From: an uncultured Chloroflexia bacterium
GTDB lineage: Bacteria > Chloroflexota > Limnocylindria > QHBO01
Length of the DNA stretch: 64,000 nt
NCBI GenBank assembly: GCA_963783725.1
Contig: CAWAOJ010000002.1
Location: 340,469-404,468 of the forward strand
Direction: 5' to 3'
Part shown: piece after piece, positions 29,356-63,693 of the stretch
Layout: each line of letters begins with the position of its first letter
How positions within the stretch are numbered: the stretch's first letter is position 1
Position numbers and translations under genes: made by a program
The notes under the pieces: generated by a model
Told to the model about the DNA's origin: nothing
Seen by the model: the letters and a program-made list of their open reading frames with translations, nothing else
Database searches by the model: none

Positions 29356-29432
29356 GGTGGCCTTAGCTCAATAGGCAGAGCATCGGATTGTGGCTCCGAA
29401 GGTTAGGGGTTCGAGACCCCTAGGCCACCCCA
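29356..29432 (+). tRNA. tRNA-His (anticodon GTG) with genomically encoded G-1 and CCA
   Basis: Cloverleaf folded by hand. Acceptor GTGGCCT/AGGCCAC; D-arm GCTC-AATAGGCA-GAGC; anticodon stem TCGGA/TCCGA; loop TTGTGGC (GTG at 29390-29392); T-arm AGGGG-TTCGAGA-CCCCT. The extra 5' G pairs with discriminator C73 and is followed by CCA. Confidence 0.9.
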
Positions 29433-29441
29433 GGTTCCTCT

Positions 29442-31520
29442 TCAGTTCGCGTGCGGTCCACGCAGGTGATACGGCACGTCGACGACGACCGTATTCGGCC
29501 GGAAGAAGAGCCGAAGCTTCAGGCGCAGCGCCGTCTGGTTGTGGAGCGGATACTCCCAAAAGTGCCGGGGCACGTATTCGGAGAGGACGACCGTCGTGCG
29601 TTGTGCAGGGTCGAGCGCCTCGGAGGCATCGAGGTAGGCAAGCAAGGGCGCCATCAGGGCCCGGTACGGGGACTCGAGGATGACAAGTCGCACGGGCCCG
29701 CCCCACGCTTCCCAGCGCTCCTTCATCGCGGCCAATTCTGCGCGGTCGTCGGATACGTGGACGGCGGTGACATTCGGAGAGAGCGAGCGGGCATACGCCA
29801 GCGCCTCGAGGGTCGGACGATCCATGCGGCTGATCGGCACGATGGCGCGCGTCCGGGGGCTCGGCAGAACGCCGGGCGGCCAGGCCGCCTCGAGTTCGCG
29901 TTCCAGGCTGTGATAGTGCCGGCCGATGGCCCACATCACACCAATGAGCGCAGGGATGAGCAGCAGGATCATCCACGCTCCGAGAGCGAACTTGGCGATC
30001 CCCACGATGATCGCGACGAGTGCGGTGGCGATCGCGCCAGCGCCGTTCAGCGCCGCACGCCAGCGCCAGCCGGCCTGCTCTTGCCGCAATCTCCACCAGT
30101 GGCGCACCATGCCCGACTGGCTCAGGGTGAATGCGACGAACACGCCCACCGTGTACAGCGGAATGAGGTTCGTGACGGAGCCCTGAAACGCCACGATCAG
30201 GGCACCCGCCAGGAGAGCGAGAGCCATGATCCCGACGGTGAAGGAGAGGCGGTCGCCGCGGAACTGGAACTGGCGTGGCATGAAGCGGTCTTTACCGAGG
30301 ATGCTCGCCAGGCGCGGGAAGTCGGCAAAGGCGGTGTTGGCGGCCAGTACCAGGAGCAGCGCTGTTGAGACCTGAACGAGGTAATGGAACGGCGTGTCCC
30401 GCCCGACCAGGGTGCGGGTGATCTGGCTGATGACCGTCTCCTGTTCGGTCGGGTCGGGGATTACGCCGAGTTGCGCCGCGAGGAAGCTGATGCCGATGAA
30501 AATTGTGGCGAAGAAGGTGCCCATCATGATCAGCACCGCGCCGGCGTTGCGCGATTCAGGCGGCTTGAATGCCGGCACGCCATTGGCGACGGCCTCTGTG
30601 CCGGTCAGGGCGACGGAACCCGAGGCGAAGGCGCGCAGCACCAGGAGGACGCTCAAACCCTCCACGCCGCCCTGTGCCAGCCAGGCCGGGGGTGCGCTGT
30701 AGTGCGGTAGCGTCCCGGTCGCGAAGCGGAACAGCCCGAACCCCAGCAGGCCATAGATCGCCACGAGGTACACGTACGTCGGGATCGCGAAAATGTTGGC
30801 GCTGTCCCGGATCCCGCGCAGGTTGCCGAGCCACAGCAGTCCGACGAAGCCCACTCCCAGGAACACCCTGACATCAAAGAGGCTCGGGAAGATGGACGTC
30901 AGGGCCGCCACGCCGGCAGCGATCGAAACGGCGACGGTCAGGACGTAGTCCGTCAGGAGCGCCGCCGCTGCGACCAACCCAGGCAGGCGACCCAGGTTAT
31001 CGCTGGCCACGATGTAGGACCCGCCGCCCGAGGGATAGGCTCGGATCGTCTGCTGATAGCTCGTGACGACGATCGCCAGAACCACCACGATGGCCGTCGT
31101 CAGCGGCATCGTCAGGGCGAGTGCCCCCGCGCCGGCGGCAACGACGACCCGCATGATCTCCTCGGTGGCATAGGCCGATGACGAGATGTTGTCCGAGGCG
31201 AAAACGGCCAGGCCCTTGATCGGACCGATGCGTTCGTGCATCTCGTGCTCGGTGGCGATCCGCCGGCCGACGAGAACCCGACGCGCTGCGTCCCACCCTC
31301 GACCGAAGGGGCTGCCGCGCCGGAGCACTTGCTCGGAAGCGACGAGGTGCCCGGGAGCCTGTCGTCGGAACTCCCTGGCGAAGGGCTCGACCACCGAGAC
31401 GTAGCGGTCGCCGACCCGGCTGCCCCGTTTGCCTCGCAGCTCCCGCAGGTCTGCGGGCGACGGTGCCTGGCCGTCTCCTCTCATCGATCGCTCATGCGAT
31501 CGACTCCACGACGACGTCAT
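29442..31520 (-). CDS. kimA: KimA-family (APC superfamily) K+ transporter with C-terminal cytoplasmic domain
   Basis: LAVFASDNISSSAYATEEI, AYPSGGGSYIV, LTDYVLTVAVSIAAG, SGSVALTGTEAVANGVPAFKPPESRNA and LVLAANTAFADFPRLASIL closely parallel B. subtilis KimA/YdaO. 12 TM helices plus about 180 aa C-terminal domain. The true start may be an internal Met. Confidence 0.8.
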   Translation of the reverse strand: MTSSWSRSHERSMRGDGQAPSPADLRELRGKRGSRVGDRYVSVVEPFAREFRRQAPGHLVASEQVLRRGSPFGRGWDAARRVLVGRRIATEHEMHERIGPIKGLAVFASDNISSSAYATEEIMRVVVAAGAGALALTMPLTTAIVVVLAIVVTSYQQTIRAYPSGGGSYIVASDNLGRLPGLVAAAALLTDYVLTVAVSIAAGVAALTSIFPSLFDVRVFLGVGFVGLLWLGNLRGIRDSANIFAIPTYVYLVAIYGLLGFGLFRFATGTLPHYSAPPAWLAQGGVEGLSVLLVLRAFASGSVALTGTEAVANGVPAFKPPESRNAGAVLIMMGTFFATIFIGISFLAAQLGVIPDPTEQETVISQITRTLVGRDTPFHYLVQVSTALLLVLAANTAFADFPRLASILGKDRFMPRQFQFRGDRLSFTVGIMALALLAGALIVAFQGSVTNLIPLYTVGVFVAFTLSQSGMVRHWWRLRQEQAGWRWRAALNGAGAIATALVAIIVGIAKFALGAWMILLLIPALIGVMWAIGRHYHSLERELEAAWPPGVLPSPRTRAIVPISRMDRPTLEALAYARSLSPNVTAVHVSDDRAELAAMKERWEAWGGPVRLVILESPYRALMAPLLAYLDASEALDPAQRTTVVLSEYVPRHFWEYPLHNQTALRLKLRLFFRPNTVVVDVPYHLRGPHAN

Positions 31521-34657: not shown

Positions 34658-35081
34658 CGGGCTCCCTCCTTGTCAGGCGTCGGTCGGTCGATTGGAGTCG
34701 CGTCGCCGCGGCGCGACGCGGACGAGCGCCTTGATGGCACGGCGCTCGTCCATCGCGGCGTACGCCTCGCCGATGTCGTGTGGCTCAGACTCAGGCGCGG
34801 TCGTCGCGGTCGCGAGTCTTCGACCCTCCCCGCGTGAGCGCGAGCGTCTGCAGGGTCAGGATGAACAGGAGCGCAAGCGTCGCCAGGAACGCGACGTCCC
34901 GCAGTTGGCCTTCCACCGAACCTCCCAGCGGGCACATCTGTCGTTGTGGCTCGCCGGCACTGGCGAGGCGGGTGTAACGGAGCGCCACTGTATCGTCCGT
35001 GTCAAGACACGCCGGCCGATGGAGATCGCTTGACCAACTCGCGAAGATGGGATTGGGCCGGCGTGGCCGACTGGGGAGGGG

Positions 35082-35960
35082 ATGATGGACGAGATGCAGC
35101 CCGAGACCGCTTGGCGTCAGTCGGCGCGCAAGATCCCTGCAGCTGCGTGGCTGCTGGCCGCGATCTCCGTAATCGAGGCTCTCGTCCTGGTCCTCATCCA
35201 GGGCCTGTTCGAGATGCAACCTTTCCCGTTCGGCGTTCTGGTGTGGGTCCTCATCTCAGCGACTCCCTTCCTCCTTGGGGCCGGCGTCGTCGCCGGCGCT
35301 CGCCGCTGGCCAGCCGCTCGGACCTGGTTCCTGGCGGCCGCAGTCGCGTTCGTCCTTCGCGGCCTGCTCGATGGCGGGCTTGCCGTGTGGCTGACCGCAT
35401 CGCTCCCGAACAACCCGCCGGCCGACGTCTCGACCTGGAACGCCTGGATGATGGCACGCGGGCTCGTGGTCGCCGCACTGGCCGTCGCCGCCCCGGCATT
35501 GGCAGCGATCGGCATCTGGGTGGCATCACCATCGGCTCCGCCTCTCTCCGGAGGGAGGCGATGGGCGGCCGTTTGGCTTGCCGCACTCGGCCTGCTTGCC
35601 ACTGCGGTCGGCTGGTTCCTCGCGGTCGCGCCCGGAACCTCGGGAGCGGACGCCATGCTTGTCGCCGCCTCCGCCCTCTACGTCGTCGCCCCGCAGGCTG
35701 CGCTTGCCTTCGCGGCGCTGGCGATCGCCGCGCTGCGTGCGATGCCGAACCGCGACCGGCTGCCGGAGTTGCTGATGGCCTGCGGCGTCGCCGTCGTGCT
35801 CGTCGCAACGGCCTGGCTCGACGTGGGATTGCAGCAGCTGCCGACGGCTGTGACGTCCGGCGGGTGGTGGGTGACGCTGCCGAACGCCCTGTTGCTGATC
35901 GGCTTGCTGGCCGTCGCCGCCGGTTTCACTGCCGGGGGCCTCACTGAAGCAGATCGGTAG
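35082..35960 (+). CDS. Hypothetical polytopic membrane protein
   Basis: 292 aa with 7-8 hydrophobic helices; no motif recognised. Confidence 0.55.
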   Translation: MMDEMQPETAWRQSARKIPAAAWLLAAISVIEALVLVLIQGLFEMQPFPFGVLVWVLISATPFLLGAGVVAGARRWPAARTWFLAAAVAFVLRGLLDGGLAVWLTASLPNNPPADVSTWNAWMMARGLVVAALAVAAPALAAIGIWVASPSAPPLSGGRRWAAVWLAALGLLATAVGWFLAVAPGTSGADAMLVAASALYVVAPQAALAFAALAIAALRAMPNRDRLPELLMACGVAVVLVATAWLDVGLQQLPTAVTSGGWWVTLPNALLLIGLLAVAAGFTAGGLTEADR

Positions 35961-36089
35961 CCCTCGCGGCAGTTCCGGCCGCGCCCTTGGCTCCTTTGAG
36001 CCGCCGCGGCTTGGCGGCTCGAGGACAGGTTGCGCCCGATCGCGACGCCCATACTGCGATCAAAGCGCCACTTCCGAGGTCCGTCGTTC

Positions 36090-36272
36090 ATGTCCAGGGT
36101 CGCTCGCCGAGTCGGGATAGCCTTCGGCTCGTTCGTTCTTGCGTGGCTGGCTGTCACGCTTGTGGCCCGATGGCTGTTCGGCTCCGGCAACATCCTCGTC
36201 TGGGTGATCGCCGCGATCGTCGGTACCTGCGCCTATCTCGTGCTCCTGTGGCGAGAGCAGCGCGCAGGCTGA
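36090..36272 (+). CDS. Small (60 aa) two-helix membrane protein, hypothetical
   Basis: ORF with two hydrophobic helices (IAFGSFVLAWLAVTLVA, ILVWVIAAIVGTCAYLVLLW). The ATG choice is uncertain. Confidence 0.35.
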   Translation: MSRVARRVGIAFGSFVLAWLAVTLVARWLFGSGNILVWVIAAIVGTCAYLVLLWREQRAG

Positions 36273-36307: not shown

Positions 36308-36868
36308 CTACGCCGGTGCGTACCCCAGGTAGATCGCGCCCGAGCGGAAGCGCCTCGTCTCCGTCTGCCTGAGCCGAAGTGCGCCGTCGAGCGCGGGGAA
36401 GAATGGCGTTCCCGCGCCGAGGACCACCGGGTGCACCACGAGGCCGTAGGCGTCGACGAGGCCGCGCCGGATGAACTGAGCGGCCAGCGTCGGGCCGCCG
36501 AGGTCGAGGTCGCCATCGAACTCGGCTCGCAGTCGTGCCAGCTCCTCGCCGACGTCGCCGTTCACCAGTCGGCTGTTCCATGCGACGCTCTTCAGCGAAG
36601 ATGAGAAGACGACCTTCGGCTTGGGGTTCCAGACGCGGGCGAACTCGAGCATGTACTCGGTCGCCGATGGGTCCGCCTCCGCGGTCGGCCAGTACGCCGC
36701 CATGGTCTCGTACAGCCGTCGGCCGTAGATGAACGCGTCGGCCTCGCGCGAGCGCTCGGTCCACCACGTGTGCAGCTCCTCGTCGATAGTCGTCCAGTCC
36801 AGCGAGTGGTCGAGCGTCTCGACGTATCCGTCGAGCGAGACGTTCATGGAGTAGACGAGCCTGCCCAT
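36308..36868 (-). CDS. Dihydrofolate reductase-like (RibD C-terminal domain) protein
   Basis: MGRLVYSMNVSLDGY...VVHPVVLGAGTPFF, the YyaP/RibD_C pattern. Confidence 0.75.
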   Translation of the reverse strand: MGRLVYSMNVSLDGYVETLDHSLDWTTIDEELHTWWTERSREADAFIYGRRLYETMAAYWPTAEADPSATEYMLEFARVWNPKPKVVFSSSLKSVAWNSRLVNGDVGEELARLRAEFDGDLDLGGPTLAAQFIRRGLVDAYGLVVHPVVLGAGTPFFPALDGALRLRQTETRRFRSGAIYLGYAPA

Positions 36869-37021
36869 TCGGAACCTCGAACTGCGTGGTTTCATGAGGA
36901 TGACCGCTGCCGCGACGAAGACTCATCGCTCCGCCTGAGAATCGCCCGACGCGGGGGCGCCATCCGGCAGCAGCCTATAATCGCGCCGCCGTCTGGTCGA
37001 CGCAGCCGCTGGAGACTCCGA

Positions 37022-39814
37022 ATGGCGACCCTTCCGCAGGGAACGGTCACGTTTCTGTTCACCGATATCGAGGGCTCGACCAGGCTCGTCCAGGCCTTCG
37101 GTGACCGATACGCGGAGCTGCTCGAAACGCACCAGCAGCTGCTCCGCGCGTCCTTCGCTGGCGGCGTCGAGATCTCGACCGAGGGCGACTCCTTCTTCGT
37201 CGCATTCGGCAGCGCGACGGCGGCGGTCGAGGCGGCCGTGGCGGCGCAACGAGCGGTCGCCGGCCACCAGTGGCCGGCTGGCGCATCGGTCCGGGTGCGC
37301 ATGGGGCTGCACACCGGCCAGCCGAGCCTGGGCGGAGACAACTACGTCGGGTTCGACGTCCACCGCGCAGCACGCATCGCCGCTGCCGGGCGCGGGGGAC
37401 AGGTGCTGCTATCCGAATCGACGCACGGGTTGGTGAGGCGCGACCTGCCGGAGGGCGTCACGGAGCGAGACCTGGGCGAGCATCGGCTCAAGGACCTCTC
37501 GCTGCCCGAACACCTCTTCCAGCTCGTGATCCCGGGCCTTCCGGCAGATTTCCCGCCGCTGCGAGCGCTCGATCCCGCGCGCACGAACCTTCCTCCGCAG
37601 CTCACCAGCTTCATCGGACGCGAGCGCGACCTGGCCGCCCTTCGCGAGCTGTGCCTCACCCATCGGCTCGTCACCGTCATCGGCACCGGAGGCACCGGCA
37701 AGACCCGACTGATGCTGCACGCGGCCGCCGAGCTCAACGACGAGTACACGGACGGCGTGTGGCTGGTGGAGCTTGCGCCGATCGGCGATGCGGCGCTCGT
37801 CCCCCAGGCGGTGTCACGTGCGCTGGGGGCGATCGACGAACCGGGACGCGACACGGTGGATGTGCTGGTGGACTTCCTGCGTGCCAAGTCGCTGCTGCTG
37901 CTGATCGACAACTGCGAGCACGTGATCGGGGAGGTGGCCGCACTCGTGCATCGGTTGGTCACGAGCTGCCCCGGACTCGTGGTCCTTGCCTCGAGCCGCG
38001 AAGCGTTGGCGGTGCCGGGCGAGAGCGTCTACCAGCTTGCCTCCCTCGGGATCCCCGCACGCATCGCGGACGTGCACGAAGATCAGGGTGCGACCTGGCT
38101 CGCGGAGGCCGCCGCCTCGGACGCGGTGCGTCTGTTCGTGGATCGAGCGACGGCGATCATGCCGACCTTTGCGCTCACGCCACCCGACGCGAGAGCGGTG
38201 GTCGAGGTCTGTCGCCGCCTCGACGGCATTCCGCTGGCCATCGAGCTCGCGGCGGCACGCGTGACGCTGCTCTCGGTGCAGGAGATCGCCTCACGGCTGG
38301 GCGATCGCTTCCGGTTGCTGACCGGCGGCCGGCGCACCGCCCTGCCACGACAACAGACCCTTGAGGCGCTCATCGACTGGAGCTGGCAGCTCCTCGACCA
38401 ACCCCAGCAACGCCTGTTGCGCCGCCTGTCCGTCTTCGCCGGAGGCTGGACGCTCGAGGCCGCCAGTGCCGTCACTCGCCTGCCCGACGAGCCGGACGCC
38501 GACGACGAGCTGGAGACGCTCGACATGCTCGGTCATCTCGTCGATCGATCGCTGGTGCTGGTCGACCGGGCGGCGCGGTCGAGATACCGCCTGCTCGAGA
38601 CGATCCGGGCGTTCGCCCGTGAACGCCTCGTGGAGGCGCAGGAAGTCACTGAAATCCACGGCACACATCTCGCCTTCTTCCTGCGACTCGCCGAGGAGGC
38701 GGAGCCCGACCTTCGCGGCCCCCAGATGGCACCGGCACTCGCGCGGCTCGATGCCGACGCCGACAACCTTCGGACCGCGCAGGAGTGGGCTTTCGAGGCC
38801 GATCCGGAGCGCGCGCTGCGCCTGTCGCTCGCCCTCTCGACGCTGTGGCGCTCGCGCGACATGGCGGAGGGGCAGCAATGGCTGAGCCGCGCCGCGGCGC
38901 TCGTAAAGTCGATGCCGGCGCCGGCACCGGAGGCGGCGAGGGAACGGGACATGCTCGTCGCGCGCGTGCTCGCGGCGGCCGCGACGGCGTCGTGGCTGAA
39001 CGGTTCGGGAGCGGTTGGGCTGCCCTGGGCGCGCGAGGCGGTGGAGGTCGCCCAGCGCACCGACGATGTCAGGGCGCGGTACGAGGCGCTCGGCTCACTG
39101 GTCATGTCGACGGTCTTTTCGGGGGGCGAGGCGGGGATCATGGAGCGAGCCAACGAGGTCGTTCGTCTCGCCGAGTCGGTCGGTGACTGGTGGACGATCG
39201 GCTTCACACGTGCCGGTCTGGCGCAGTGGGCGATCGAACGAGGCGACGTGGCGGAGGGCGAGGCCATGCTTGCGTCCGCCATGGCGGCCGCCGACCGCAC
39301 GCAGAACCCGACGGTGATCGCATTCGCGGCATTGGCGCACGCGAGGGTGAGCGGCTTCGCCGGCCGCCTTGCCGAGGCACGGGAGTGGTTCGAGCGGACG
39401 ATCGGCGCGTACCGATCGGTGGGCGATGCGGGACTCGCCCTGGTGGCGAGGAGCGACCTTGCCCACGTGCTGCGCCGCGCCGGTTCGATCGACGAGGCCG
39501 AGGCGATCTATCGCGAGACGCTCCACGAGTGGCTGCATGCCGGGAATCGGGGCGCCATCGCCAATCAGCTGGAGTCGTTCGCCTTCATCTTCGTGAAGCG
39601 GGGGGAGCTCGAGCGTGCGGCGCGGCTCTTCGGCGCCGCGGAGGCGATTCGCGAGGTCGCACAGTCGGTGATGCTGTACTCCGAGCGCGAGGAATACGAC
39701 CAGTCGGTCGGCGCCCTGCGGGCCACGCTCGACCGAACATCGCTCGACGCCGCGTGGGCGGAGGGGCGCCGGCTGTCGACCGATGAAGCCGCATCCCTCG
39801 CCATCTCACGCTAG
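37022..39814 (+). CDS. Class III adenylyl/guanylyl cyclase domain fused to STAND-type P-loop NTPase and C-terminal TPR array
   Basis: CHD motifs VTFLFTDIEGST...GDSFFVAF...GLHTG...VGFDVHRAARI; Walker A GTGGTGKTR; long TPR/helical C-terminus. There is no C-terminal LuxR HTH. Confidence 0.85.
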   Translation: MATLPQGTVTFLFTDIEGSTRLVQAFGDRYAELLETHQQLLRASFAGGVEISTEGDSFFVAFGSATAAVEAAVAAQRAVAGHQWPAGASVRVRMGLHTGQPSLGGDNYVGFDVHRAARIAAAGRGGQVLLSESTHGLVRRDLPEGVTERDLGEHRLKDLSLPEHLFQLVIPGLPADFPPLRALDPARTNLPPQLTSFIGRERDLAALRELCLTHRLVTVIGTGGTGKTRLMLHAAAELNDEYTDGVWLVELAPIGDAALVPQAVSRALGAIDEPGRDTVDVLVDFLRAKSLLLLIDNCEHVIGEVAALVHRLVTSCPGLVVLASSREALAVPGESVYQLASLGIPARIADVHEDQGATWLAEAAASDAVRLFVDRATAIMPTFALTPPDARAVVEVCRRLDGIPLAIELAAARVTLLSVQEIASRLGDRFRLLTGGRRTALPRQQTLEALIDWSWQLLDQPQQRLLRRLSVFAGGWTLEAASAVTRLPDEPDADDELETLDMLGHLVDRSLVLVDRAARSRYRLLETIRAFARERLVEAQEVTEIHGTHLAFFLRLAEEAEPDLRGPQMAPALARLDADADNLRTAQEWAFEADPERALRLSLALSTLWRSRDMAEGQQWLSRAAALVKSMPAPAPEAARERDMLVARVLAAAATASWLNGSGAVGLPWAREAVEVAQRTDDVRARYEALGSLVMSTVFSGGEAGIMERANEVVRLAESVGDWWTIGFTRAGLAQWAIERGDVAEGEAMLASAMAAADRTQNPTVIAFAALAHARVSGFAGRLAEAREWFERTIGAYRSVGDAGLALVARSDLAHVLRRAGSIDEAEAIYRETLHEWLHAGNRGAIANQLESFAFIFVKRGELERAARLFGAAEAIREVAQSVMLYSEREEYDQSVGALRATLDRTSLDAAWAEGRRLSTDEAASLAISR

Positions 39815-40125
39815 GCCGGCGGTGTGGACTCTCGGTGGACGGGCCGCCCGCGGCGCGTCAACTTCGTGGACAAACCGGGTTGGCGGCGAGGCAGTGCCGC
39901 CGTAGGGTGTCTGTGGCACCCACGGAGGGGCCACTCGACGGGTCACCGGAGGTGACACCGGACGGGGCACTCGATTCGACGCTCGACCGATCACTCGATC
40001 CATTTCGGTAACGTCAGGGATGCGGGAGTCGGCGCGGGACCGAACGCGGGACCTTGCACCGGATCATTCACCGGAGCGCGCGCGGGAGTTCCTCCGAAGG
40101 TGCCGTTTTCGTGCGGGCGCGCGGG

Positions 40126-41184
40126 TCACCCGTCGCAGTCGAGCAGTCCCGCCGCCTCCTTCGCGCGCAGGACGTGCCATGCCGCGTTCTCGACGCGTGC
40201 ACGGAACCACTGCTTCACCGACGCCTCGACCTGAATCGCTCGCGCCATCTCGATGGCATCGTCCAGCTGGTTGAGCACGATCATGTCCCCGCCGGCGTTC
40301 AAGAAGTCGCGCGCGCGGGTCGATGCGGGCATGCCCGCGACGGCGGTCGATCCCAGGCTGTCGGAGATGACCACGCCGCGGAAGCCAAGGTCGCCGCGCA
40401 GCATGCCGTTGATGACGGTGTTGGAAAAGACGGCCAGGTGCTGCGGGTCGATCAGCGTGTAGGTCGCCTCCGAGATCATGACGAAGCGTGCGCCCGCGGC
40501 GATGGCGGCGGCAAACGGCGAGAGGTACGGGTCGCCGCGCGTCGTCACGGCATCGGTCACGTCGGCGCTGAAGTCGGTGTTGCCGATCACGCGGCCAAGC
40601 CCTGGAAAGTGCTTGGCGGTCACGCTCACGCCGCTGGCGCCCAGGCCGGCGACGAAGGCCGCGACGTGCGAGGCGGCAGTGGCGGGGTCGTGCGCGTACT
40701 CGCGCGCCCAGTGGCCGATCGGTGCGTTCTGCTCATCGGTCCCGCTTGGAACGACGTCCGCAACGGGCGCGAGATCCAGGTTCACGCCCGCGGCGCGCAG
40801 CTGCGCGCCCCATCGGGCGGCGAGTGACGTCAGCCGAGCGACGGACATGGCGCCCTGCGCCAGCGCGCTCGGCATCACGTCGAAGCCTGGTCCAGTCAGC
40901 GCCTGGATGTCGCCGCCCTCCTGGTTGGCGGCCACGAAGAAGGGCACTCCGTAGGTGGCTGCCCGCGTGGCCTGTGCCTGGACGAGGTTCGACACGCCAC
41001 GTATCGCGGCCACGCCATCGCTCGACCGATGGGCGAACATCACCGAGCCGAAGTGCCACGTCGCGATCGCCTGCTGGCGGGCGGCATCCAGGCGGTCGCT
41101 GGTGAGCCCGATCATGAACAGCTGCCCGATGCGCTGAGCCTCGCTCATGGAGGCGAGCGTTCGGAGTGCGCAGCTGGGCGGCAC
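40126..41184 (-). CDS. Glycoside hydrolase family 3 N-terminal domain protein (NagZ/LpqI-like beta-N-acetylhexosaminidase)
   Basis: AQRIGQLFMIGL...NQEGGDIQAL...VTAKHFPGLG...VVISDSLG. Frame-intact only from GTG 41184; the upstream lipoprotein signal is in another frame (see next feature). Confidence 0.8.
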   Translation of the reverse strand: MPPSCALRTLASMSEAQRIGQLFMIGLTSDRLDAARQQAIATWHFGSVMFAHRSSDGVAAIRGVSNLVQAQATRAATYGVPFFVAANQEGGDIQALTGPGFDVMPSALAQGAMSVARLTSLAARWGAQLRAAGVNLDLAPVADVVPSGTDEQNAPIGHWAREYAHDPATAASHVAAFVAGLGASGVSVTAKHFPGLGRVIGNTDFSADVTDAVTTRGDPYLSPFAAAIAAGARFVMISEATYTLIDPQHLAVFSNTVINGMLRGDLGFRGVVISDSLGSTAVAGMPASTRARDFLNAGGDMIVLNQLDDAIEMARAIQVEASVKQWFRARVENAAWHVLRAKEAAGLLDCDG

Positions 41185-62532: not shown

Positions 62533-62847
62533 CCATCGAGCGCCGGGAGTCCGGGCCGCGGGACCCGATCGGACCATGGCACGCTCACCGGCGCCCGGCG
62601 AGCATCCAGGCAAGGCCGCCGACACTGCCCGTCGGCGGCCGTCCACGTCCCCGATGAGACTTCATGCCAACGATCGTCTGACCATGGAGATCATCTGCAC
62701 GGCAAGCCAGGCCAATTGAGCTGAGCGCGCTGCTCTTCCTGAGCATGGACGGCGTGTACCCGGGGTCGGGCCGACAGGACGAGGATCGCCGTGGCGATTT
62801 CCGCGTATGCACGCGGCGTGCTTGCGCCCTGGCCTCACCATGGAGCG

Positions 62848-63693
62848 ATGGGTGCTATCAGACGCAAGAGCCTCAATGACCCCGACGCCCTGCGCGACCT
62901 TCCGCTCGCCGAGATTCGGATCGCGCGCATCGGCCCGCACACCATCGGGTATGGCGTCGAGCAGCCCGGATGGCGGTGGTCGACGCACATGGGCCCGAGG
63001 ACGGGGGCGAGTTCGTGCCCGGTGCACCATGTGCAGGTCTTCCTTTCGGGCCGATTCGCGGTGCGCATGGATGACGGCGAAGAGGTCGAGTTCGGGCCGC
63101 TCGACGTGGGCGACATTCCGCCGGGCCACGATGCCTGGGTGCTCGGCGACGAGCCGGTGCACATCCTCGATTTTGCCGGCAACAGCGATGCGATCGGCAT
63201 GCCCCGCGAGCACGAACGGATCGTCACGACCCTGCTGATGACCGATGTCGTCGACTCGACCCGGATCGCGCAGCGCCTGGGTGACGGGCCCTGGAAGCAG
63301 ATCCTCTCCGATCACAACGCGCTTGTCCGCGCCCAACTGCTGCGGTTCGGCGGCTTGGAGATCAACACGACGGGCGACGGCTTCCTGGCCACCTTCCGAA
63401 GCGCAGTGGCCGCGCTTCGATGTGCCGCCGCCATCGTTGCCGCCCTCCACGATATCGCGATCGAGACGAGGATCGGCATCCACACGGGGGAGATCGAGCC
63501 GATGGGCCGCGACGTCGGCGGCGTGGCGGTCCACGTGGTGGCGCGGGTCATGGCGCTGGCAGGTCCGTCGGAGGTGTTCACCACCTCAGTCACCGTCGGC
63601 CTTGCCGATGGAAGCGGCCTTGCCTTCGAGGGCCAGGGCCTCCGGCAGGTCAAGGGACTCGATCGCCCCGTCCAGGTCTATCGGCTCCTCTAG
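62848..63693 (+). CDS. Cupin domain fused to class III adenylyl/guanylyl cyclase catalytic domain
   Basis: C-terminal CHD: VTTLLMTDVVDSTRIAQ...GDGFLATF...GIHTGE...VGGVAVHVVARV; N-terminal about 130 aa beta-barrel (cupin-like). Start 62791 or 62848. Confidence 0.7.
   Translation: MGAIRRKSLNDPDALRDLPLAEIRIARIGPHTIGYGVEQPGWRWSTHMGPRTGASSCPVHHVQVFLSGRFAVRMDDGEEVEFGPLDVGDIPPGHDAWVLGDEPVHILDFAGNSDAIGMPREHERIVTTLLMTDVVDSTRIAQRLGDGPWKQILSDHNALVRAQLLRFGGLEINTTGDGFLATFRSAVAALRCAAAIVAALHDIAIETRIGIHTGEIEPMGRDVGGVAVHVVARVMALAGPSEVFTTSVTVGLADGSGLAFEGQGLRQVKGLDRPVQVYRLL

Follow-up and report, generated by a model that had tools for sequence, protein, structure and literature searches.

The window analysed here, a stretch of 64,000 nucleotides from contig CAWAOJ010000002.1 of an uncultured Chloroflexia bacterium (GTDB lineage Chloroflexota; Limnocylindria), has approximately 70 % G+C throughout and contains a gene for a protein of 930 amino acids in which a class III nucleotidyl cyclase is followed by a STAND P-loop NTPase and a long helical region with tetratricopeptide repeats (TPRs). 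The protein keeps its metal- and phosphate-binding residues and its NTPase motifs, is homologous to the mycobacterial Mclx proteins, lacks an output helix–turn–helix (HTH) domain, and has no fixed partner gene. The family to which it belongs, as an intact and unremarkable member, is very large; its proteins already carry annotations and have been mentioned in publications, but biochemically they are almost unstudied. The gene is less unusual than was assumed in an earlier sequence-only reading of this DNA, as its multidomain cyclase architecture is among the commonest. The features of the locus are listed in Table 1.

Table 1. Features of the cyclase–STAND NTPase–TPR locus, in coordinates of the window.
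Feature	Position	Strand	Details
Cyclase–STAND NTPase–TPR gene	37022..39814	+	Complete coding sequence, 930 aa plus stop
Class III cyclase homology domain (CHD), aa 1-170	37022..37531	+	Pfam; Ma1120 alignment; family statistics; Foldseek TM 0.9 to Ma1120
P-loop nucleotide-binding domain of the nucleotide-binding oligomerisation domain (NOD), aa 196-345	37607..38056	+	Pfam, motif alignment, family statistics
Helical domain then winged-helix domain (~aa 440-535) ending RYRLLETIR	38057..38641	+	AlphaFold2 model; HTH_77 putatively placed here
All-helical arm and TPR-like sensor region, aa 541-930, 26 helices	38642..39811	+	Pfam, AlphaFold2 model, Foldseek
GGAG, likely ribosome-binding site	37011..37014	+	7 nt before ATG; putative, read from the sequence
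RibD_C (dihydrofolate reductase (DHFR)-fold) gene	36308..36868	-	Upstream of the cyclase–STAND–TPR gene, divergent
Convergent intergenic gap, 311 bp	39815..40125		Between the 930-aa coding sequence and the GH3 gene
GH3 glycosidase gene	40126..41184	-	Downstream of the 930-aa coding sequence, convergent

In Pfam, the protein matches Guanylate_cyc (PF00211) at residues 6-139, with 40.1 bits against a cut-off of 21.9, and TPR_12 and TPR_MalT at residues 732-881. Between these, P-loop/STAND matches to nSTAND_NTPase5, AAA_22, and AAA_16 at residues 197-327 are weak and sub-threshold, and there is no Pfam match to GerE/LuxR in the protein. The top NCBIfam match is the LipJ/Rv1900c cyclase (E 3e-18), and AfsR also matches (E 4e-16). 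A model made with AlphaFold2 from an alignment of 30 sequences (pLDDT 86.9, pTM 0.73) has an α/β cyclase domain at approximately residues 1-170, a short linker, a P-loop α/β domain at approximately residues 196-345, a helical domain followed by a winged helix that includes a β-hairpin, together at approximately residues 346-540, and then helices, 26 in all, that form an arm and a TPR-like solenoid of approximately 13 TPR-like hairpins running to the C-terminus. When this model was compared with the PDB using Foldseek, the autoinhibited STAND–TPR protein PH0952 (6mfv, E 7e-13) was among the best solved matches. The middle part matches ADP-bound Apaf-1 (1z6t), CED-4, and several resistosomes of plant nucleotide-binding leucine-rich repeat receptors (NLRs), and the N-terminus matches Ma1120, Rv1900c, and other class III cyclases, with a template-modelling (TM) score to the target of approximately 0.9. 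The combination of cyclase, P-loop NTPase, and helical/TPR region within 930 residues, as described from the sequence alone, is thus borne out by Pfam, the model, and Foldseek.

The active-site positions of the CHD were mapped by alignment to the solved structure of Ma1120, using its published residues K101, D157, A164, and R168 (PMC4215837), and family statistics were taken from 350 relatives, with gaps at the scored position included in the counts. The two metal-binding Asp residues correspond to Asp15 and Asp56 and the transition-state Arg to Arg118, and Arg93 is also kept. At the first substrate position the canonical Lys is Ser52, at the second the canonical Asp is Asn107, and the transition-state Asn is His114, giving HxxxR rather than NxxxR. 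The Ser52/Asn107 pair matches neither the canonical adenylyl cyclase signature (Lys/Asp) nor the canonical guanylyl cyclase signature (Glu/Cys-type). The sequence-only reading had looked to the loss of catalytic metal or substrate residues as evidence against its interpretation; the metal residues are retained, and it is the substrate residues that are non-canonical, as they are in Rv0386.

Among the relatives, D15 is kept in 336 of 350 and D56 in 335, the rest being mostly gaps, and R118 is kept in 342, such that D15, D56, R93, and R118 are nearly invariant among the sequences with a residue at these positions (335-342 out of 350, including gaps). At position 114, His is the commonest residue (186 relatives), ahead of Asn (128), Ala (17), and Ser (10); at position 52, the counts are Lys 96, Gly 85, Asp 61, Gln 32, and Ser 17. 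Positions 52 and 107 vary among close relatives (G/D/S and G/D/S/N, respectively). There is strong covariation between positions 52 and 114: Lys occurs 92 times with Asn and twice with His, and Gly, Asp, or Ser at position 52 is paired with His114 158 times. The family therefore consists of two classes, one with the canonical Lys/Asp/Asn/Arg and a 'His class' without the Lys, to which the 930-residue protein belongs. The His class does not resemble decay, because its metal and phosphate ligands stay fixed.

The non-canonical Asn342 and His402 of Rv1900c reportedly do not contact the substrate, a finding ascribed to Sinha et al. in 2005. Ma1120 is active despite having Ala164 at the catalytic Asn position (PMC4215837), and Rv1900c, with His at this position, is reported to make cAMP, with cGMP as a side activity (PMC4886424). 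The CHD of the 930-residue protein is probably catalytically competent, and its base specificity cannot be predicted.

A second, small class III cyclase gene is present in the window, at 62845..63693 (+). It encodes 282 amino acids, with Guanylate_cyc at residues 129-276 (E 1.5e-5), 33 % identity to the CHD of the 930-residue protein, and no Pfam match in its first ~125 residues. In this cyclase, too, the catalytic Asn is replaced by His (VAVHVVARV) and the substrate Lys is missing (EINTTGD), so that two or more His-class cyclases are encoded within 26 kb of this genome.

The NTPase has these motifs of the NB-ARC/AP-ATPase clade: Walker A, GTGGTGKTR, at residues 221-229 (nt 37682-37708); Walker B, LLLIDNCEH, at residues 292-300 (nt 37895-37921), with DNCEH at 296-300; the Arg of sensor-1, SRE, at residues 325-327; and, in the helical domain, the GxP motif GIPLAIELAAAR at residues 402-413. 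Walker A, Walker B (hhhhDNCEH), SRE, and GIPLAIELAAAR are identical across 30 aligned relatives. In the larger set of 350 relatives, K227, D296, E299, and P404 are present in all sequences with a residue at these positions, and R326 in 349 of 350, with one R326Q. From the conservation of the CHD and NTPase residues in the 350 relatives, both enzymatic modules are therefore judged to be under purifying selection. NB-ARC (PF00931) is found in several homologues, for example P0013, P0030, and P0049.

The fold of the clade, a nucleotide-binding domain, a helical domain, and a winged helix succeeded by a repeat sensor, is present in the AlphaFold2 model, in the Foldseek matches, and in the precomputed Pfam match to HTH_77 (PF25872) that is carried by this protein and nearly all of its relatives. 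HTH_77 probably represents the NOD's own internal winged helix (~aa 440-535) and not an output DNA-binding domain. An MHD-type His is absent from the winged helix, with RYRLLETIR having Leu where plant NLRs have His, in an alignment made by eye rather than computed. Pairwise identity across the family is 47-51 % in the TPR region, 54 % in the cyclase, and 60-65 % in the NOD. The TPR sensor thus comes close to the enzymatic domains in conservation and is not hypervariable, unlike the sensors typical of conflict systems.

A word-indexed homologue search returned at least 8000 matches, of which the best 120 were inspected. Nearly all of these are 900-990 amino acids long, with a few truncated or extended, and have the same Pfam set; those named by organism are from Chloroflexota or Candidatus Limnocylindria metagenome-assembled genomes. 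After an identical protein, which is already on record from a 2.24-Mb contig, the next-best match is 70 % identical. An exhaustive search, which covered representatives of 50 %-identity clusters, gave 162,840 matching clusters at E<=1e-3, of which 65,111 reached E<=1e-30, and the top 150 cluster representatives are mostly 900-1000 amino acids in length with the cyclase at the extreme N-terminus. The median length of 269 collected proteins is 940 amino acids. Across more than 10 phyla, the typical family length is 930-960 amino acids and the C-terminus is common, with the C-terminal cap ...AWAEGRRLSTDEAASLAISR shared by the family. In GTDB representative genomes, members are found in Chloroflexota, Armatimonadota, Ignavibacteria, Betaproteobacteria, Verrucomicrobiota, Planctomycetota, Gemmatimonadota, Eremiobacterota, Dormibacterota, and Actinomycetota, including Mycobacterium. 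In two database homologues, P0062 and P0082, the C-terminus departs from the family alignment and is aberrant, being of low complexity and rich in Arg and Ser; a frameshift in the gene call or the assembly seems a better explanation than true variation.

The resemblance to Rv0386 and Rv1358 that had been noted from the sequence alone reflects true homology. A homologue from Mycobacterium asiaticum (L078), in which Guanylate_cyc, NB-ARC (38.1 bits against a cut-off of 23.5), TPR, and GerE are all matched, shares 43 % identity with residues 4-621 of the 930-residue protein (E 2e-136). A second match, at 39 % identity, pairs residues 846-927 of the latter with the part of L078 that immediately precedes the LuxR domain. 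It had been considered that Rv0386-type proteins have a different NOD (AAA_16/COG3899); from the L078 comparison they are in the same family, and this was rejected.

A LuxR tail is present in 12 of 349 relatives (9 of 80 genome loci and 3 of 269 database proteins) and missing from the other 337. All nine of the tailed genome loci are labelled as Actinomycetota lineages, and all nine have Q52/N107, the Gln/Asn pair reported for Rv0386. The absence of an output HTH is thus genuine, as had been proposed. The possibility, also raised from the sequence alone, that this gene is a LuxR-containing orthologue with its HTH truncated was rejected: there is no LuxR remnant in the window by tblastn with a mycobacterial LuxR tail, nor in three frames of the 311-bp gap after the gene, and the C-terminus is common to the family. 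On the alignments, the LuxR domain appears as an appendage placed after the shared C-terminal cap, and by parsimony the tail-less form would be ancestral, with the HTH having been gained.

The open frame on the + strand extends over 36770..39814, and translation from the ATG at 37022 gives the 930-residue product, with the N-terminus MATLPQGTVTFLFTDIEGST. The N-termini of the aligned homologues all coincide with this ATG. A longer product from a GTG at 36770 was rejected in favour of a start at 37022, since no homologue begins earlier than the ATG and the extension would run into the divergent RibD_C gene. That the gene is real is supported by the identical database protein and by more than 8000 homologues of the same architecture.

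The position of the gene, described in the sequence-only reading as lying between a DHFR-like gene and a convergent gap of ~310 bp, is confirmed by the RibD_C, gap, and GH3 assignments in Table 1. Other genes of the window near the coding sequence include a DUF4118 histidine kinase, a cupin gene, and TypA/BipA. Around the gene, no RNA family (Rfam), promoter-like site, or terminator-like site was found. Between the cupin and RibD_C genes there are open reading frames (ORFs) of 292-333 amino acids at 34946..35960 (+) and one of 171 amino acids at 35678..36193 (-), none of which has a Pfam match at E<=0.001. The sole RNA gene detected in the window is a tRNA-His (GTG) at 29357..29432 (+), which adjoins an amino-acid permease gene at 29442..31520 (-).

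The comparison of neighbourhoods that had been suggested was made by clustering all ORFs within 5 kb of a family member at 84 loci. There is no conserved operon partner, with no neighbour cluster exceeding 12 of the 84 loci. The largest cluster (12 out of 84) consists of other cyclase–ATPase–TPR proteins, followed by ABC transporter, histidine kinase, and short-chain dehydrogenase/reductase clusters. In individual genomes, the neighbours of close homologues are housekeeping genes and vary from one homologue to another: a 70 % identical relative (P0002) is flanked by a branched-chain ABC transporter on one side and an inositol phosphatase on the other, and two 62 % identical relatives (P0018 and P0033) share synteny, both being between thymidine kinase and shikimate dehydrogenase. 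The proteins of the 12-locus cluster are built differently from the family members that they neighbour; one example, at L050:13249-17427 (-), has 1393 amino acids and combines BTAD/SARP, Guanylate_cyc, AAA_16, and TPR. The cluster gives a hint that multidomain cyclases are locally clustered or duplicated in some genomes.

Taken with what is known of related proteins, it is likely, on balance, that the 930-residue protein is a stand-alone, ligand-gated nucleotidyl cyclase that is activated by oligomerisation on an NLR-like switch and that serves ordinary second-messenger signalling. At rest, the NB-ARC-type NOD would keep the protein as a closed monomer. Binding of a conserved ligand to the C-terminal TPR sensor would then permit the NOD to exchange its nucleotide and to oligomerise in an ATP-dependent manner, and the oligomer would gather the N-terminal cyclase domains. 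Class III cyclase active sites form only across a dimer interface, and because of this the induced proximity would be expected to turn on synthesis of a cyclic nucleoside monophosphate (cNMP). The product would most likely be cAMP, possibly with a cGMP side activity, and would act via receptors encoded elsewhere in the genome. The proposed order of events, product, and ligand are modelled on STAND proteins (MalT, Apaf-1, NLRs, and PH0952) and on class III cyclases.

A number of observations weigh against this proposal. All three of the residues that read the base and ribose are non-canonical, with Ser52, Asn107, and His114 in place of Lys, Asp, and Asn, and positions 52 and 107 differ even among close relatives; activity and product are uncertain for these reasons. 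The NB-ARC (PF00931) profile is below threshold on the 930-residue protein itself, and a tblastn search of the 64-kb window with E. coli CRP, which is a weak test, gave no cNMP receptor. We know of no full-length member of the cyclase–NB-ARC–TPR family that has been assayed. The non-canonical residues would also be explained if the CHD were catalytically dead or strongly impaired, remaining as a nucleotide-binding or dimerisation module in a protein that acts as an ATP/NTP-sensing scaffold. Drift at positions 52 and 107 is what would be expected where base recognition is unconstrained, and an allosteric regulatory role has been proposed for some of the Mclx paralogues, in which canonical residues are said to be missing (PMC4452763). 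This is nonetheless unlikely, as the metal Asp pair and both Arg residues are kept in ~98-100 % of the 350 sequences, which is hard to explain without catalysis. The tight coupling of His to the loss of Lys (K/N 92, K/H 2) points to a defined alternative active-site class, not to decay, and both Rv1900c, with His, and Ma1120, with Ala, are active (PMC4886424, PMC4215837).

The sequence-only reading had also remarked that STAND proteins with enzymatic N-termini recur in defence and abortive-infection systems. As an NLR-like anti-phage sensor, the protein would recognise a phage protein through its TPRs, and an alarm nucleotide from the cyclase would activate a separate effector, in a Pycsar-like manner. 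Cyclase–NOD–repeat fusions are listed among NLR-like 'all-in-one' architectures (bioRxiv 10.1101/2020.01.06.895854) and cNMP cyclases are found in conflict systems (PMC7159879), in keeping with that theme. However, PADLOC gives noise-level matches only on this protein (mad8, E 0.014; PycC, E 0.02 over 70 residues), and no adjacent cNMP-binding effector or other conserved partner is present in the window or at the 84 related loci. With no PycC-type profile match, RibD_C and GH3 as neighbours, and no conserved neighbour gene, the locus does not resemble Pycsar. Likewise, it does not resemble Avs/bNACHT systems, having no PADLOC match better than E 0.014, a housekeeping context, and a TPR region that is 47-51 % identical, rather than hypervariable, across the family. 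The thymidine kinase/shikimate dehydrogenase context retained by the two 62 % identical homologues suggests vertical descent. PADLOC, the neighbourhoods, and the conservation of the sensor therefore lend the defence proposal no support, and an anti-phage role is considered quite improbable. Still less probable, and in our view very unlikely indeed, is that the protein is a transcription factor that binds DNA through the HTH_77 winged helix. The precomputed HTH_77 match would be consistent with this, but it is better read as the winged helix of the NOD, which would correspond to the ARC2/WHD of Apaf-1 and NLRs. In STAND proteins, the winged helix is not a DNA-binding element but packs on the nucleotide-binding domain. 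In addition, the actinobacterial relatives that regulate transcription carry an extra LuxR domain for that role.

Databases already label members of the family as 'predicted ATPase/class 3 adenylate cyclase', and they make up tens of thousands of sequence clusters. Most widespread is the form without an HTH, to which a LuxR tail seems to have been added in a minority of members, mainly in Actinomycetota. To our knowledge, the biochemistry of the cyclase–NB-ARC–TPR family is known only through the isolated CHD of Rv0386. A soluble, stand-alone member such as the 930-residue protein would be a reasonable model for the control of a dimeric enzyme by a STAND switch, and the class in which Lys loss is coupled to the change from Asn to His makes a testable prediction of an alternative active site. 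It is also conceivable, if doubtful, that His-class CHDs on NB-ARC–TPR switches make a product other than cAMP, such as a pyrimidine cNMP, cGMP, or, if they are promiscuous, several products. In that case, bacteria would have in this abundant family an NLR-like receptor with a small-molecule second-messenger output, in parallel to plant TIR-NLR signalling, with a conserved endogenous or environmental ligand. The distribution seen here contrasts with an earlier account, in which cyclase and LuxR were said to be combined in a 'nearly mycobacterial-exclusive' manner (PMC4452763).

Among known systems, the Mclx proteins (Rv0386, Rv1358, and Rv2488c) have the architecture CHD–NB-ARC–TPR–LuxR (PMC4452763, PMC3466318). 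They share their domain order with the 930-residue protein and are homologous to it over the whole length, by a comparison made through M. asiaticum L078 and not the Rv0386 sequence. The NTPase motifs LDNCEH, LDGIPLAIELAAAR, and RYRLLET of L078 are identical to those of the 930-residue protein, whereas its central TPR region could not be aligned by BLASTP. Asn is present at the second substrate position in both the Mclx-type proteins and the 930-residue protein. The latter differs from Mclx in having no C-terminal LuxR/GerE HTH, in having Ser at the first substrate position where all nine LuxR-tailed genome loci have Gln, and in having His at the catalytic Asn position. The Rv0386 CHD is reported to act as an adenylyl cyclase and also as a guanylyl cyclase (PMC4452763, citing Castro 2005).

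The closest solved cyclase domain is that of Ma1120 from M. avium (4WP3; E 1.6e-19, 33-34 % identity, TM ~0.9, root-mean-square deviation 1.5-2 Å), which, like the 930-residue protein, lacks the catalytic Asn (Ala164). Ma1120 retains the canonical Lys101/Asp157 and is a small, single-domain protein, neither of which is true of the 930-residue protein. The cyclase of Rv1900c (LipJ; 1YBT/1YBU) matches it in PDB sequence comparison (E 4e-12) and in Foldseek (TM 0.84-0.89) and shares its non-canonical signature, in which the substrate Lys is missing and His stands in for the catalytic Asn, the equivalence of the His being drawn from the NxxxR register and the literature. In Rv1900c, however, the cyclase is fused to an N-terminal alpha/beta-hydrolase rather than to a STAND–TPR module. 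Cyclase–ATPase–TPR proteins without an HTH have already been described, as Leptospira LA_4008 and the MXAN_4545-type of Myxococcales (PMC3789758); these are likened to the 930-residue protein by description only, have two tandem CHDs, and may have an ATPase of AAA_16 type. A survey of NLR-like proteins in bacteria also mentions 'all-in-one' cyclase–NOD–repeat arrangements (bioRxiv 10.1101/2020.01.06.895854).

A switch composed of a NOD and helical repeats, as in the 930-residue protein, is found in AfsR and other bacterial NB-ARC–TPR proteins, in PH0952 (6MFV), in Apaf-1, and in plant NLRs. By analogy, the 930-residue protein is expected to share with these the logic by which ligand- and nucleotide-dependent oligomerisation activates an N-terminal effector. 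The effector itself is what differs, as AfsR, Apaf-1, and NLRs carry a SARP DNA-binding domain, a CARD, or a coiled-coil (CC) or TIR domain, whereas the 930-residue protein carries a cyclase.

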